Assembly: GCA_964435065.1 (NCBI GenBank)
Contig: CAYSXS010000005.1
Span: 1 to 54,220, forward strand
Length of the DNA stretch: 54,220 bases
Direction of reading: 5' to 3'
Source: an uncultured Gammaproteobacteria bacterium
GTDB taxonomy: Bacteria; Patescibacteriota; Patescibacteriia; UBA2196
Shown: positions 8,182 to 12,945 of the stretch, in pieces
Layout: every line of letters begins with the position of its first letter
How positions within the stretch are numbered: position 1 is the stretch's first letter
Notes under the pieces: generated by a model
Databases searched by the model: none
The model's input: only the letters and a program-made list of their open reading frames with translations
What the model was told of the DNA's origin: nothing
Program-made: the position numbers and the translations under genes

Positions 8182-9435
8182 TTATGGTAAATAATTTAAA
8201 GGATTAACAGGAATTCCGTTTTTACGTATTTCAAAGTGCAAATGTGGTCCTGTTGATAATCTTCCTGCACCAGCTGTGCCTGGCATACCACCTGTCTGCC
8301 CTATTAACTCTCCTTGAGTTACAAATTGGTCTTCCTTTACATATGATTTAGTTACATGACCATAAACGGTTGAAAAACCATCTGCATGGATTATCATGAT
8401 ATATCCATAACTTGAGGATGAATTTAATTTAACTCTTCCAACATATCCTGATGCAGAGGCTCTTAATGGAGAGTTTTGTTTTGAACGTAAATCAATTGCT
8501 GGATGTTCGAATATATATCTAAAAGGATAAGTAGGATCATGAAAATATGCTGTTATTCCCCTATTTGGTACAGGCCAGTTAAATGTTGCATCACCCAAAG
8601 CTTCTAGCTTGCCAGCGCCTTCTTTTGCTAATCTTTCTCTGATTACTTTTTCCAAATTAGCAATTTCAAAATTAATATTAGCTTGTTCAGATTTTACAGA
8701 AGATAAAAGAGATTGAAAACGAACTTCTGAATTTCTTGTTTGTGATAATATGTTTTGTTTTGTTATTATCTGTTCATCTAAACTTTCTCTATTTTTTTCT
8801 AGTTTATCTTTTAAGTTTTTTAAAGAAGCTTTTTTGGCTTCTAATTCAGCCATTGATTTATTTAATTCTATCTTTAATTCTTTTAATTCTTTTAAACCAT
8901 CATTCATTTTGTTTTGTAGAATACTTAAAGCTCTCATTTCATTATAGTAATCAGATACAGAATCATGACCTAATATTATTTCCAACTCAGAAGTTTGGTC
9001 TTTCTGATACATTTGCTGGATGAATTCCCTTAAAACCTTCTTTTTGTTATTTGTGTTAGTTTCATTCTGTCTTATCTTATTCTCTGTATCTTGAATCTGT
9101 AAAGAGTTTTCTGAAATTTGACTTTCAGTTAATTCTATCTCAGCTTCTGTTTTAACTATCCTAGCCCCTAAATAGTTAACTTGGCTTGATAGAGTTACGG
9201 CTTGACTACGATAGTTTTTAATAGATTTGTCATATTCCCCTATTTTATCTGATAATTCTTTAATTTTATCCTGTTTTGCTTTGATTTGTTCTGATAAACT
9301 TTTAATCCCTTCATTATCTCCTCCATTATATACAGTTTCAGCCTGTATATTCATTGGTACAACCAACAAACTAAATAAAAACACAGTTAAAACTAACCGG
9401 CTGATAAATGTCAGATTTTTTCTTAGATTATTCAT
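8182..9435 (-). CDS. Coiled-coil M23 peptidase (EnvC/CwlO-like); start probably at 9435
   Basis: Signal peptide, long coiled coil, HPAIDL, YGH, STGPHLHFEIR..NPLNYL; the longer ORF start overlaps the divergent promoter. Confidence 0.9.
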   Translation of the reverse strand: MNNLRKNLTFISRLVLTVFLFSLLVVPMNIQAETVYNGGDNEGIKSLSEQIKAKQDKIKELSDKIGEYDKSIKNYRSQAVTLSSQVNYLGARIVKTEAEIELTESQISENSLQIQDTENKIRQNETNTNNKKKVLREFIQQMYQKDQTSELEIILGHDSVSDYYNEMRALSILQNKMNDGLKELKELKIELNKSMAELEAKKASLKNLKDKLEKNRESLDEQIITKQNILSQTRNSEVRFQSLLSSVKSEQANINFEIANLEKVIRERLAKEGAGKLEALGDATFNWPVPNRGITAYFHDPTYPFRYIFEHPAIDLRSKQNSPLRASASGYVGRVKLNSSSSYGYIMIIHADGFSTVYGHVTKSYVKEDQFVTQGELIGQTGGMPGTAGAGRLSTGPHLHFEIRKNGIPVNPLNYLP

Positions 9436-9482
9436 ATTTCTTAAATATATTGTACCATAGATCCTTTTTGCATTTATCCACA

Positions 9483-9510
9483 TTGACATTATTCCTATCT
9501 ATGATATACT
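9483..9510 (+). promoter_or_regulatory. Sigma70-type promoter of the leader/tRNA-His operon
   Basis: TTGACA-16bp-TATACT with extended TG; DnaA box TTATCCACA at 9474-9482 abuts the -35. Confidence 0.75.
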
Positions 9511-9519
9511 GGTCTCAGT

Positions 9520-9570
9520 ATGAAAAATTTAAATACAAATTTAGTACATCATATCCATCTCTTAGGTTAA
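9520..9570 (+). CDS. Putative His-rich attenuator leader peptide MKNLNTNLVHHIHLLG
   Basis: 16-codon ORF just after the predicted TSS, with CAT CAT ATC CAT, overlapping the antiterminator arm. Confidence 0.65.
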   Translation: MKNLNTNLVHHIHLLG

Positions 9571-9664
9571 AAGAGCTGGATTTTGCGTTAAATTTCTAAA
9601 TATACACCAATGTAGTCTCTTTTAACCCAAGGGATTTTTTGTTTGCATTGGTGTTTTTTATTTT
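9553..9664 (+). promoter_or_regulatory. Transcription attenuator (alternative hairpins plus intrinsic terminator)
   Basis: 9557-9575 pairs with 9617-9635 (19 bp, 1 GU, 1 mismatch); terminator stem 9604-9614/9644-9654 plus U-tract; local hairpin 9553-9581. Confidence 0.65.
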
Positions 9665-9741
9665 GGTGGGTGTAGCTCAATTGGTAGAGCATCTCGTCGT
9701 GGCCGAGACGGTTGCCGGTTCAAGTCCGGTCATTCACCCCA
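9665..9741 (+). tRNA. tRNA-His(GUG) with G-1, C73 and encoded CCA; atypical C33
   Basis: Cloverleaf GTGGGTG/CATTCAC, GCTC/GAGC, TCTCG-TCGTGGC-CGAGA, GCCGG-TTCAAGT-CCGGT. Confidence 0.93.
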
Positions 9742-9768
9742 AAGTGTTTAATAATTAAACTAAATAAT

Positions 9769-10524
9769 ATGAAAAAAGACATTTTATTAATTGGCGCAAT
9801 TCACGGAGATGAGCCATTAGGGCCAGAGATTTTGGCTAAAATAGACAAAAATAATAGATTTGATTGGATTATTGGTAACCCAAAAGCTTTATTTTTGAAA
9901 AAAAGAGAATACCAAAAGGATTTAAATAGAAGTGCACCAGGAGAAATATCCTCAGAGATATATGAATCTAGAAGAGCCGCAGAAATTCTATCTTTATCTA
10001 AGGAATATAAATATGTAATAGATATTCACGGATCAACTAAAAAAACAGGTGTTTTTATTATAATAACAAAACCAACAAAAGAAAATTTTAAACTGGCTGC
10101 TTTGTTAAATATTAAAAAAATAGTTTATTGGCCAAGTTTTGATAAAGAATTAGAGGGCCCATTAAGTGAATTTTTTAATTGTGGCCTAGAGATAGAGTGT
10201 GGTCCAAAGAATTCAAAAAAGATAAAAAAGGAATTAGAAAATATTTTATTAAATTTTTTAGATAATTATAAAAAAAGAGAAAAAAGTTCTTTTATAAAAC
10301 AAATGAAAAGAAAGGAGGTATATCAAGTTTATGGTTCATTAAAGAAAAAACAAAAAAATATTAAATTACAAGAATTTAAATTAACTACAGGAGGAACAAA
10401 AGAAAAGTTTTATCCAATATTTATTGGAGGTTACACTAATTTGGTTTGTTATAAAACCAAAAAACTAAATTCACAAGAAATATTTACTTTATTCAAGGAA
10501 AATAAAAATGCAAAGAATAATTGA
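9769..10524 (+). CDS. Succinylglutamate desuccinylase/aspartoacylase family (M14-like Zn hydrolase)
   Basis: HGDEPLG, GNPKA, DLNR, IDIHG, IECG; the ORF-track start at 9712 lies inside the tRNA, so ATG 9769 is used. Confidence 0.85.
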   Translation: MKKDILLIGAIHGDEPLGPEILAKIDKNNRFDWIIGNPKALFLKKREYQKDLNRSAPGEISSEIYESRRAAEILSLSKEYKYVIDIHGSTKKTGVFIIITKPTKENFKLAALLNIKKIVYWPSFDKELEGPLSEFFNCGLEIECGPKNSKKIKKELENILLNFLDNYKKREKSSFIKQMKRKEVYQVYGSLKKKQKNIKLQEFKLTTGGTKEKFYPIFIGGYTNLVCYKTKKLNSQEIFTLFKENKNAKNN

Positions 10525-11464
10525 TTATTTTAGGAATGCTTCTGGGTGTGAATCAACAAAAAGAGGCATTGGGATTGAAATTGAAACCTTGTTTATTGAT
10601 AAGGAAAGAAAACCAATAACTTTAAAAATGTCTCAACAAATTTTTATTAGCTTAATTGGTTCTAACGACTGGAAGTTGGTTGAATCTAAAAACGGGATTA
10701 TTGTGCAGATTGAGTATAAAGGGTTTAAGAGTAATTTCGTGGATTATAAATATAATCTGGTTTATGAACTTGGCTGGAATAATATTGAATTAAGAACAGC
10801 AGTTGAAAATATAAATAATTATGAATTGTTATTTATAAACACTAAGACCATTCTTAATCAAATATATTCTTTTGCTAAAGAAATTGGTGCTTTTGCACTT
10901 TATGAGCCATATGACGGTCAGAGATCTATTAAAACTCTTATTATGCCAGACAAAAGAGATGAGATATGGTTAGAACTTGATGGCTCGGTGCTTAAAGTAT
11001 TGGGGCATATAGCTGCTGTTCAATATACAATTGATCTCTGTTCTATCGACGAAGGTATAGAATTTATAAAATTATTAAATAAATTTTATATTAAAAAACA
11101 ATGGCCTTCAGGATCAGTTTCTAGAATTTGGAAAAACTATATTAAATACTCAAAAGCTGATTTTGAGACCAATCGTTTTGGCCCGCCACCCGAATCTTTC
11201 AAAGACTATTGCGAAGGGATGGCAGGTCTCAAGGTTTTTATGAACCGACAAGGGAATGCAGATTTAGAGATAATTAATTATCCTGTTGAGTTTAAAAATA
11301 TTGATAAAATTGATTTTGATTTATTTTTACGATCAGTTTGGTGGTGGAGCAGGTTTAGAGTTATTAATAACAGACTGGCGTTAGAAATTAGACCTGCACC
11401 ACGCGGGGCTGATACAGAAATTCAAAGTAATTTTTTAGAAATCAAAAAACTTTTAAAAATTTAA
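10508..11464 (+). CDS. Glutamate--cysteine ligase / carboxylate-amine ligase-like protein
   Basis: IGIEIE, ELGWNNIEL, AAVQYTID, SRFR...LEIRP motifs; overlaps the upstream gene. Confidence 0.65.
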   Translation: MQRIIDYFRNASGCESTKRGIGIEIETLFIDKERKPITLKMSQQIFISLIGSNDWKLVESKNGIIVQIEYKGFKSNFVDYKYNLVYELGWNNIELRTAVENINNYELLFINTKTILNQIYSFAKEIGAFALYEPYDGQRSIKTLIMPDKRDEIWLELDGSVLKVLGHIAAVQYTIDLCSIDEGIEFIKLLNKFYIKKQWPSGSVSRIWKNYIKYSKADFETNRFGPPPESFKDYCEGMAGLKVFMNRQGNADLEIINYPVEFKNIDKIDFDLFLRSVWWWSRFRVINNRLALEIRPAPRGADTEIQSNFLEIKKLLKI

Positions 11465-11471
11465 AAGTTTT

Positions 11472-11504
11472 AAAAAGCCACTCTTTTTTTTGAGTGGCTT
11501 TTTT
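11472..11504. terminator. Bidirectional intrinsic terminator
   Basis: AAAAAGCCACTC-T8-GAGTGGCTTTTTT between convergent genes. Confidence 0.85.
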
Positions 11505-11508
11505 ATTT

Positions 11509-12945
11509 TCATAATATCTCAATTGCTTTTTTAATTCTTTCCAGAGCTTTTTCTTTTCCAAGTACTTCAGCTACTTCAAAAGGTCCAGGAGAGTTTTGTT
11601 GGCCTGTTAATGCTACGCGCATTGGCCAGAGTGTATCCCCTGTTCCTAAATTTTTAGCTTTTATGGTTTCTATTAATAGTTGTTCTAAAGAACCACGAGT
11701 CCAATTTTCTTTAGGAATCTTATTTAACTCCTCATATATAAACTCTAATCTAGACTTAGCTGTTTCTAAATCAGATTTTCTCCATTTTAATAGTTCTTTA
11801 TCATATAATATTTCTTTAAAGAAATATTGTGTAACTTCTGGAATTTCAGAAAGTTTTTTAATTCTTTCTTGTTCTAATGCTACTACAGATTGAACATATT
11901 TTTCATCATAACTTTCTGAATCAATGAGTTTAGCATCTATTAGGTATGGCATGCACCTTTCTGTAAAGTTTTCTAAGCTTAATTCTCTGATATATAAACC
12001 ATTCATCCAGTCTAGCTTCTCTATATCAAACACAGCTCCTGCTTTATGTACTTTATCTAAAGAAAATTCATTTTCTAGTTTTTCTAAAGTAAATATTTCT
12101 TCTTCATTTCCAGGATTCCATCCTAGGAGGGCTATATAGTTTAGGAGAGCTTCTGGTAGATAACCAAGTTTTTTAAATTCTAAAACCCCAGTTGCTCCAT
12201 CGCGTTTAGATAATTTAGATTTATCGGGAGCCAGGATTAATGGGACATGAGCAAATTCTGGTAAATCCCAATTAAACATTTGGTAAAGTAAGATATGTTT
12301 AGGTGTTGATGGAAGCCATTCTTCTGCTCTAATTACATGGGTTATTTCCATTTCATGATCATCAATTACATTAGCTAAATGATATGTTGGAAAACCATCA
12401 GATTTTAATAATACTTGATCATCAATTTCTTTATGATCAAATTCTACTTCTCCTCTAATTAGATCTTTAAATTTAGTTTTTCCTTCAGTAATTTTCATTC
12501 TAATTACATGTGGAGTTCCTGCTTTTAATTTTTCTTCTACTTCTTCTTGGGTTAGTTTTAAACATCTTCGGTCATACCTAGGTGCTTGTTTGTTTTGTTC
12601 TTGTATTTTTCTCATTTCAGCTAAAGTTTCTTGAGTACAGAAACAATAATATGCTTTACCTTCATTAACTAGTTGTTCTGCATATTTCTTATATATCTCT
12701 ATCCTTGTTGATTGATAAGGAATATTATCTATATTATCTGGTTTAATATTTACCCAATTTAAAGCATCTAGGATTGAATCTACCCCGCCTTCTTTTAATC
12801 TATCTTGATCGGTATCTTCTATTCTTAATATGAATTCACCATTATTTTTTTTAGCAAACAAATATTCAAAAAGAGCAGATCTTAGATTTCCTATATGTAT
12901 ATCTCCTGTTGGACTTGGTGCAAATCTTGTTTTAATTTTATTCAT
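11509..12945 (-). CDS. gltX: Glutamate--tRNA ligase
   Basis: RFAPSPTG, HIGN, RIEDTD, KLSKR. Confidence 0.97.
   Translation of the reverse strand: MNKIKTRFAPSPTGDIHIGNLRSALFEYLFAKKNNGEFILRIEDTDQDRLKEGGVDSILDALNWVNIKPDNIDNIPYQSTRIEIYKKYAEQLVNEGKAYYCFCTQETLAEMRKIQEQNKQAPRYDRRCLKLTQEEVEEKLKAGTPHVIRMKITEGKTKFKDLIRGEVEFDHKEIDDQVLLKSDGFPTYHLANVIDDHEMEITHVIRAEEWLPSTPKHILLYQMFNWDLPEFAHVPLILAPDKSKLSKRDGATGVLEFKKLGYLPEALLNYIALLGWNPGNEEEIFTLEKLENEFSLDKVHKAGAVFDIEKLDWMNGLYIRELSLENFTERCMPYLIDAKLIDSESYDEKYVQSVVALEQERIKKLSEIPEVTQYFFKEILYDKELLKWRKSDLETAKSRLEFIYEELNKIPKENWTRGSLEQLLIETIKAKNLGTGDTLWPMRVALTGQQNSPGPFEVAEVLGKEKALERIKKAIEIL

Follow-up and report, generated by a model that had tools for sequence, protein, structure and literature searches.

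Positions 9,483 to 11,464 of contig CAYSXS010000005.1 (assembly GCA_964435065.1), a stretch of 54,220 nucleotides (nt) from a member of the Patescibacteriota that we call the window, carry on the forward strand a promoter, a short histidine-rich reading frame, an intrinsic terminator, a tRNA-His gene and two enzyme-like genes. We consider it likely from the sequence that the short frame and the terminator form a functional classical attenuator, which would sense His-tRNA(His) and gate a spare tRNA-His gene and, by readthrough, both enzyme genes. Taken alone, the pattern of a His-rich frame followed by a terminator is weak evidence, and the case for an attenuator therefore rests on comparison with other genomes. 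An earlier note on this DNA had proposed the attenuator logic from the letters of the sequence; homologous leaders in related genomes, with their His clusters, terminators and competing antiterminators, now support it.

The leader and its competing helices

The region ahead of and including the tRNA gene is made up of the following elements.

9483-9510, + strand: sigma-70-type promoter, with TTGACA at 9483-9488, a 16-nt spacer, TATACT at 9505-9510 and TG at 9502-9503
9520-9570, + strand: leader open reading frame (ORF) of 16 codons, near-leaderless, encoding MKNLNTNLVHHIHLLG*
9553-9581, + strand: hairpin 1:2 of the minimum-free-energy (MFE) fold, pairing 9553-9557 with 9577-9581 and 9559-9563 with 9571-9575, the stop codon lying in its loop
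9557-9635, + strand: antiterminator, in which 9557-9575 pairs with 9617-9635
9604-9664, + strand: intrinsic terminator, a bulged two-tier hairpin (9604-9654) followed by a U tract (9655-9664)
9665-9741, + strand: second tRNA-His(GTG) gene (9666-9741 in ARAGORN; 57.7 bits against the Rfam tRNA model)

Promoter, near-leaderless ORF, antiterminator pairing and terminator are thus all present where the earlier note had placed them. In a promoter scan of 9000-12000, the promoter is the best site and the sole one to score 11/12, while promoter-like sites as such are not above chance in this interval (16, against a shuffled mean of 13.6 ± 3.3), and the scan gave no second plus-strand promoter-like site between 9511 and the tRNA-His gene. 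The -10 box and the ATG of the leader ORF are 9 nt apart. Three codons in four near the end of the ORF are CAT codons for His (9547, 9550 and 9556), an amino acid that accounts for 1.5% of codons in long ORFs. The antiterminator is paired at 18 of 19 positions, with one A.C mismatch (9564/9628) and one G.U pair, and its core (9565-9575 with 9617-9627) consists of 11 perfect pairs. The terminator hairpin combines a lower stem of 11 bp with an upper one of 7 bp, a bulge of 8 nt and a loop of 7 nt; it is followed by TTTTTTATTTT, and the U tract stops one base short of G-1 of the tRNA-His. The hairpin is absent from the output of a simple terminator scan, for which its bulge and long loop are the probable reason. 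The whole leader (9517-9665) folds with an MFE of -32.2 kcal/mol, compared with -21.5 ± 3.4 kcal/mol for shuffled sequences (z = -3.1; 1 of 200 shuffles was as stable).

We infer from this arrangement that the ORF is translated, that the helices act as a kinetic switch and that the unit responds to histidine, in the following way. Transcription would start about 3 nt ahead of the ATG of the 16-codon ORF. If the ribosome passed quickly over the HH-I-H codons, it would reach the stop codon (9568) and cover arm 2 of the leader (9565-9581), so that the upper terminator hairpin could nucleate, the two-tier terminator at 9604-9654 would form and RNA polymerase would stop in the U tract, one base short of the tRNA. 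If instead the ribosome stalled on the first or second His codon, it would cover arm 1 and leave arm 2 free to pair with 9617-9627, and beyond, ahead of synthesis of the terminator 3' strand; with the antiterminator formed, transcription would go on through tRNA-His to both enzyme genes.

Folding of 9517-9665 with ribosome-masking constraints, a check put forward by the earlier note, bore this out in part. When a ribosome occupies the first or the second His codon of the nascent transcript, the antiterminator is the MFE structure, both in the window genome (G000) and in G005, a genome of the same family and another genus, and with the ribosome at the stop codon the upper terminator hairpin can form in the nascent folds of both. 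However, the antiterminator is the best fold solely before the terminator 3' strand is transcribed, and once the leader is complete, every masked state has the terminator as its MFE structure. Because the terminator wins at equilibrium in all of these states, the switch would have to be kinetic, as it is in attenuators of the classical type.

Homologous leaders in related genomes

Twelve leaders were read in genomes of the same class, namely G000, G005, G018, G012, G125, G118, G156, G157, G114, G182, G235 and G087, and each has a His cluster with a terminator after it (the terminator of G012 was recognised by reading the sequence). In G005 a TTGACA-16-TATAAT promoter, with 9 nt between -10 box and ATG, precedes the leader peptide MKNLAVKNLNHHTHLFG*; all three helices are there and a tRNA-His gene comes next, so that both the His codons and the stems upstream of tRNA-His, whose conservation the earlier note had suggested looking for, are kept in a relative. 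Its HHxH peptide differs from that of G000 by an in-frame 3-nt indel, its terminator is conserved with indels that keep the register, and an Ile-to-Thr replacement within its His cluster is matched by a compensatory T-A to C-G change in helix 1:2. The tRNA-His sequence and the downstream gene of G005 differ from those of G000, and the 282-aa protein encoded downstream of its leader matched no Pfam or NCBIfam family. In the alignment of the two leaders the indel shifts the register and gives false mismatches in pair counts.

BLASTN with the leader DNA found G005 only among 12 other genomes of the family. A covariance model of the G000 and G005 leaders (R1) was run over the order (24 genomes) and matched in five genomes, of which four have leaders on reading (G000, G005, G018 and G012); the R1 matches in G007 and on contig C12 of G000 are plain terminators. 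The MAFFT alignment of the four leaders misaligned their His codons and was replaced by a model-guided one. A four-sequence model (R2), run over 151 sampled genomes of the class, matched in eight genomes, six of which carry leaders as judged by reading (G000, G005, G118, G125, G156 and G157), while the matches in G135, the N-terminus of a signal peptide, and in G097 are not leaders. A search within the order of G125, which comprised two genomes only, added nothing. Scans for the antiterminator-arm pattern in collections of genomes and of metagenome contigs returned 16 and 12 loci; apart from L041, the sequence of which is that of the G005 locus, these are unrelated palindromes and not homologs.

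The genes that follow the leaders differ. In G125 the leader MIRVDKKLNHHQNTS* is followed by a terminator and a tRNA-His gene. G018 has the leader MPTLINAISHHRHSLPA*, a terminator and then a tRNA-like gene whose anticodon loop is 6 nt long (44.6 bits against the Rfam tRNA model), and G012 has the leader MNLISNFNLHHHSHSLI*, a terminator and hisS. The leader of G118 (...NHHNTT...) lies ahead of a 115-aa ORF and that of G156 (...LHHHTL...) ahead of a phosphoribosyltransferase-like ORF; no evident gene lies downstream of the leader of G157 (...NHHHNH...). From leader to leader the peptide differs at its N-terminal end in both length and sequence, and the His codons switch synonymously between CAT and CAC, which places the constraint on the codon and not on an RNA motif.

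Several further features were seen at these loci. The tRNA-His-like gene of G018 (L092, 1669-1742) has no G-1:C73 pair and has a C.A mismatch in the acceptor stem, and after it comes a GC-rich structured stretch (L092, 1745-1860) that had no Rfam match. The hisS gene behind the G012 leader (L093, 1718-3103, 461 aa) is 23% identical to hisS of G000; this could reflect two different types of histidyl-tRNA synthetase (HisRS) or a second hisS copy in G012. The protein downstream of the G156 leader (L099, 1664-2533, 289 aa) has a type-I phosphoribosyltransferase motif and weak matches, below the cut-off, to purine phosphoribosyltransferase families of NCBIfam.

Competing helices across the twelve leaders

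We then asked of all twelve leaders the same question: when the ribosome sits on the first His codon and the transcript is folded up to, and excluding, the terminator 3' strand, how much of the terminator 5' strand pairs upstream? For each leader, 200 shuffles of the upstream segment served as control. The paired positions of the terminator 5' strand, and the shuffles reaching that pairing, were as follows.

G000: 13/17 paired upstream, reached by 6/200 shuffles
G005: 10/19 paired upstream, reached by 76/200 shuffles
G018: 11/14 paired upstream, reached by 7/200 shuffles
G125: 16/21 paired upstream, reached by 10/200 shuffles
G118: 5/6 paired upstream, reached by 65/200 shuffles
G156: 11/13 paired upstream, reached by 3/200 shuffles
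G157: 17/21 paired upstream, reached by 1/200 shuffles
G114: 9/10 paired upstream, reached by 13/200 shuffles
G182: 8/9 paired upstream, reached by 2/200 shuffles
G235: 9/11 paired upstream, reached by 9/200 shuffles
G087: 5/7 paired upstream, reached by 16/200 shuffles
G012: 0/7 paired upstream

In 11 of the 12 leaders the greater part of the terminator 5' strand is paired with the sequence immediately behind the His codons, and in eight of these 11 no more than 13 of 200 shuffles reach the observed pairing.

The tRNA-His behind the putative attenuator is a second copy

The tRNA encoded directly behind the terminator has a cloverleaf with a GUG anticodon, and G-1 (9665), C73 (9738) and the CCA end are all encoded, G-1 standing opposite C73. 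The G-1:C73 pair is the identity element for HisRS. The other tRNA-His(GTG) gene of this genome, the canonical copy at 3759-3831 of contig C20, is of a type found in many relatives and shares 49% identity with the window copy. Among the 41-42 tRNA genes of G000, His is, besides CAT, the sole anticodon with two genes, and G005 likewise has two tRNA-His genes. A search with one 77-nt query, a weak test by which absence is not shown, gave no second tRNA-His in G125, G018, G012 or G156. The earlier note had taken tRNA-His as the attenuated target, and the gene and the homologous leaders are there, but it is not the only tRNA-His of the cell: the gene behind the putative attenuator is a spare.

Two observations concern the surroundings of tRNA-His genes. 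After the canonical gene (G000, contig C20, 3832-3910; L064) there is a conserved element of ~45 nt, a G/A-rich run followed by a terminator-like hairpin, without a match to any Rfam family; it also occurs in L004, L007 and L071, follows tRNA-His in G022 and G008, and is present in several copies in G001 and G022. In G022 and G012, a tRNA-His of the window type lies directly after an ORF with HNH-endonuclease-like Cys/His spacing (L004, 1580-1720, - strand; L005, 1340-1500, + strand), which suggests a mobile context for this tRNA type.

The enzyme genes and their link to histidine control

Downstream of the tRNA lie the following elements.

9769-10524, + strand: AstE/AspA-family zinc-amidohydrolase-like gene, 251 aa (Pfam PF24827, AstE_AspA_cat)
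10508-11464, + strand: carboxylate-amine ligase-like gene of glutamate-cysteine ligase (GCL) fold, 318 aa, by fold match
11472-11503, no strand assigned: terminator hairpin, shared with the convergent gltX gene (11509-12945, - strand)

The tRNA-His and the first enzyme gene are separated by 27 nt and the two enzyme genes overlap by 17 nt, an arrangement in which they would be co-transcribed with the leader and the tRNA. A match to PF24827 above the cut-off (46.9 bits against 25; E 3e-12) bears out the AstE/AspA-family hydrolase named by the earlier note. As the protein stays below the NCBIfam equivalog cut-offs for aspartoacylase (72.3 against 180 bits) and AstE (16.4 against 305 bits), it is a family member but neither an aspartoacylase nor an AstE equivalog. 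The same note had called the second gene Glu-Cys-ligase-like, which holds at the level of fold, of the GCL/glutamine-synthetase type, but not of sequence family. Its AlphaFold2 (AF2) model has a pLDDT of 93.9, the top Foldseek matches of the model are 2gwc (TMq 0.68-0.70, E 3e-10) and then YbdK 1r8g and 1tt4, and its nearest Atlas clusters are GCS2 (0.96, TM 0.86); in contrast, the protein had no sequence match in Pfam, NCBIfam or PDB, as a single sequence or as a profile, the PF04107 (GCS2) hidden Markov model matched neither it nor any of 21 aligned relatives, and the profile of its family found no GCL among PDB sequences. That the two enzymes act in acyl or gamma-glutamyl conjugate chemistry is a guess. 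As for the final terminator claimed for the unit, the hairpin at 11472-11503 exists but belongs to gltX, since it also follows gltX in G001, a congener of G000 that has no cassette.

Other members of the class tie these genes to histidine. The leader directly follows a gene of the YerC/YecD-type TrpR family (TIGR02531, 6.5e-23) in G118, G125 and G157, with the two frames overlapping in ATGA in G125 and G157, and in G182, G235 and G087 the His cluster forms the last codons of such a gene, ahead of the terminator. In the part of PMC9413887 available, this family is described as the histidine repressor HisR. The GCL-fold ligase gene is present in five of 301 sampled class genomes, and in all five it follows either a His leader (G000, G114) or a HisR-like gene with a His tail (G182, G235, G087); an AstE/AspA-like gene adjoins it in G182 and G087. 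We count the amidohydrolase and ligase pair as part of the histidine regulon of the class. Between the HisR-like gene and the leader of G118 there is a perfect palindrome of 30 nt (L096, 1436-1500), which could be an operator or a terminator.

An accessory cassette in a reduced genome

The whole unit is an accessory cassette, placed as follows.

~9485-11471, + strand: cassette of ~2 kb with promoter, leader, tRNA and both enzyme genes, absent from the same site in the congener G001
8182-9435, - strand: M23-family peptidase with a signal-peptide-like N-terminus, left flank
11509-12945, - strand: glutamyl-tRNA synthetase gltX, right flank

The M23-peptidase gene and gltX are ~23 nt apart in G001 and ~2 kb apart in G000, and the left junction falls inside the -35 box of the promoter. 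Contigs from an independent run span both junctions with 0 differences, and none of the DNA contigs compared with the stretch has a joint that skips the cassette. The genome of the window comprises 944,537 bases in 27 contigs, with 30.5% GC and a completeness of 96.7%. No matches to the HisD or HisA/F families were found in it, which suggests that the organism is a histidine auxotroph; a HisR-like gene was likewise not found, and hisS (contig C4, 24572-25813) has no leader. The cassette is the sole histidine-sensing device found in G000, and it would give this auxotroph with its reduced genome a second, inducible tRNA-His.

A further reading of the cassette, which goes beyond attenuation and which we regard as unlikely, is that of a portable stand-by module for histidine decoding, made up of a replacement tRNA-His and a pair of enzymes for histidine acquisition. 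What the leader sensed would then be a failure to read His codons of whatever cause, be it that histidine is short or that the resident tRNA-His has been lost, damaged or cleaved, as an anticodon nuclease might do, and the amidohydrolase and ligase would constitute an undescribed route of histidine acquisition in auxotrophic bacteria from the candidate phyla radiation (CPR).

Points against the attenuator and alternative explanations

Several points weigh against a functional attenuator. To begin with the RNA, the terminator prevails at equilibrium in the complete leader, as described above, and the perfect 11-bp core of the antiterminator leaves the bottom of the terminator stem untouched, so that a pseudoknot holding both helices is conceivable on geometric grounds. 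In the test across leaders, the pairing of G005 and G118 was reached by many shuffles, and G012 scored nothing; for the latter, the automatic test had chosen a wrong hairpin further downstream, and the printed fold nevertheless pairs the segment after the stop codon with the 5' strand of the proper terminator. As regards the ORF, it has no Shine-Dalgarno sequence and only three His codons, and both its translation and the transcription start are predictions from the sequence. In a lenient genome-wide scan for short ORFs with at least three His in four codons and a terminator-like site nearby, the bare pattern turned up three times in G000, although the window leader is the only intergenic one of the three, the other two overlapping long reading frames. 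Finally, the device is missing from G001, a congener of G000, and from G010, a congener of G005, in which no such unit follows the Mur-ligase-like gene that it has in common with G005, and the benefit of an extra tRNA-His to a cell short of histidine is not obvious. Possibly the loop buffers tRNA-His supply in itself, or the spare tRNA steps in on failure of the resident one.

Three explanations without histidine-responsive attenuation have to be weighed, which even together carry a low probability in our judgement. According to the first, the region is the 5' leader of a constitutive tRNA precursor, its hairpins serving processing or stability or forming a leaky terminator that sets a fixed level, and the ORF is incidental. 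The equilibrium folds, the missing ribosome-binding site and the chance occurrence of similar His-rich short ORFs in G000 all fit such a precursor. It would, however, leave unexplained why His clusters recur in 12 leaders with otherwise unrelated surroundings and with synonymous CAT/CAC changes, why the indel of G005 is in-frame, why antiterminator potential exceeds that of shuffles in most leaders, and why His leaders also stand ahead of hisS and beside HisR-like genes and not ahead of tRNA genes only; we hold it to be improbable. About as improbable is that the unit of ~145 nt, bracketed as it is by a strong promoter and a terminator, constitutes a small gene in its own right, coding for a micropeptide or a small RNA, with an unrecognised promoter or unregulated readthrough serving the tRNA and enzyme genes. 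Conservation is limited to the His cluster and to those parts that overlap the RNA helices, the interval between ORF and tRNA has no promoter-like site, and a His-related or candidate target gene comes next at every leader locus except G157, all of which speak against a gene of its own. A translation-independent sensor of the T-box or riboswitch kind that binds uncharged tRNA-His or histidine is highly improbable, even if T-boxes control his and aminoacyl-tRNA synthetase genes in other Gram-positive lineages (PMC9413887, in the part available), since neither the T-box family (RF00230) nor any other cis-regulatory Rfam family matched at E<=10 in 9300-9900 or at E<=0.01 in five related loci, the leader is only ~145 nt long and the conserved element is an in-frame run of His codons inside an ORF.

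Relation to known attenuators and significance

The attenuator proposed here has close counterparts. In his leader attenuation, stalling at the His codons favours the antiterminator, as set out in the accessible part of PMC9413887. Like enterobacterial hisL, the window leader combines a short ORF with a His cluster, alternative helices 1:2, 2:3 and 3:4 and an intrinsic terminator. The hisL leader has seven His codons; the window leader differs from it in having three, in being near-leaderless without a Shine-Dalgarno sequence, in its host, a member of the Patescibacteria/CPR, and in its targets, a tRNA gene and two non-biosynthetic enzymes in a genome in which no his pathway was found. It had no match to the Rfam His_leader family (RF00514) at E<=10 in 9300-9900. 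The pheST attenuator of E. coli, with its pheM leader, acts on an aminoacyl-tRNA synthetase operon. It shares with the window leader, whose G012 homolog precedes hisS, leader-peptide attenuation of the translation apparatus, whereas the first regulated product in the window would be the very tRNA read by the sensor, which makes for a direct feedback loop. By analogy with these systems, the device would work like hisL or pheM while standing outside the Rfam His_leader and T-box families. Mycobacterial short ORFs rich in cysteine codons are likewise leaderless or near-leaderless and rich in one codon, and have been described, in the portion of bioRxiv 10.1101/834739 available, as amino-acid-responsive attenuators of downstream genes; amino acid, phylum and targets are different. 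The HisR regulons of its relatives, where a His leader placed after a HisR-like gene or merged into its end controls the ligase gene too, have this target in common with the window attenuator; the latter stands alone, no HisR-like gene having been found in G000.

Classical attenuation acts on operons for amino-acid biosynthesis and on a few synthetase operons. The literature searched, which did not cover most subscription journals and supplements, contains no description of a leader-peptide attenuator ahead of a tRNA gene. In the window, the attenuation logic would bear on the tRNA read by the sensor, and tRNA supply would feed back directly on itself; the regulated spare copy of tRNA-His is kept, within an accessory cassette, in a genome of 0.94 Mb. 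What is new in the window is the spare-copy status of the tRNA, the indel of the cassette, and the union of tRNA, ligase and amidohydrolase targets in one unit. Few regulators are recognised in Patescibacteria, and these leaders suggest that near-leaderless leader peptides are among the means they use. All five genomes that carry an uncharacterised family of GCL-fold ligases, which has an AstE/AspA-like partner, connect it to histidine control, and this link would offer a concrete handle on how the histidine auxotrophs of this group cope with shortage.

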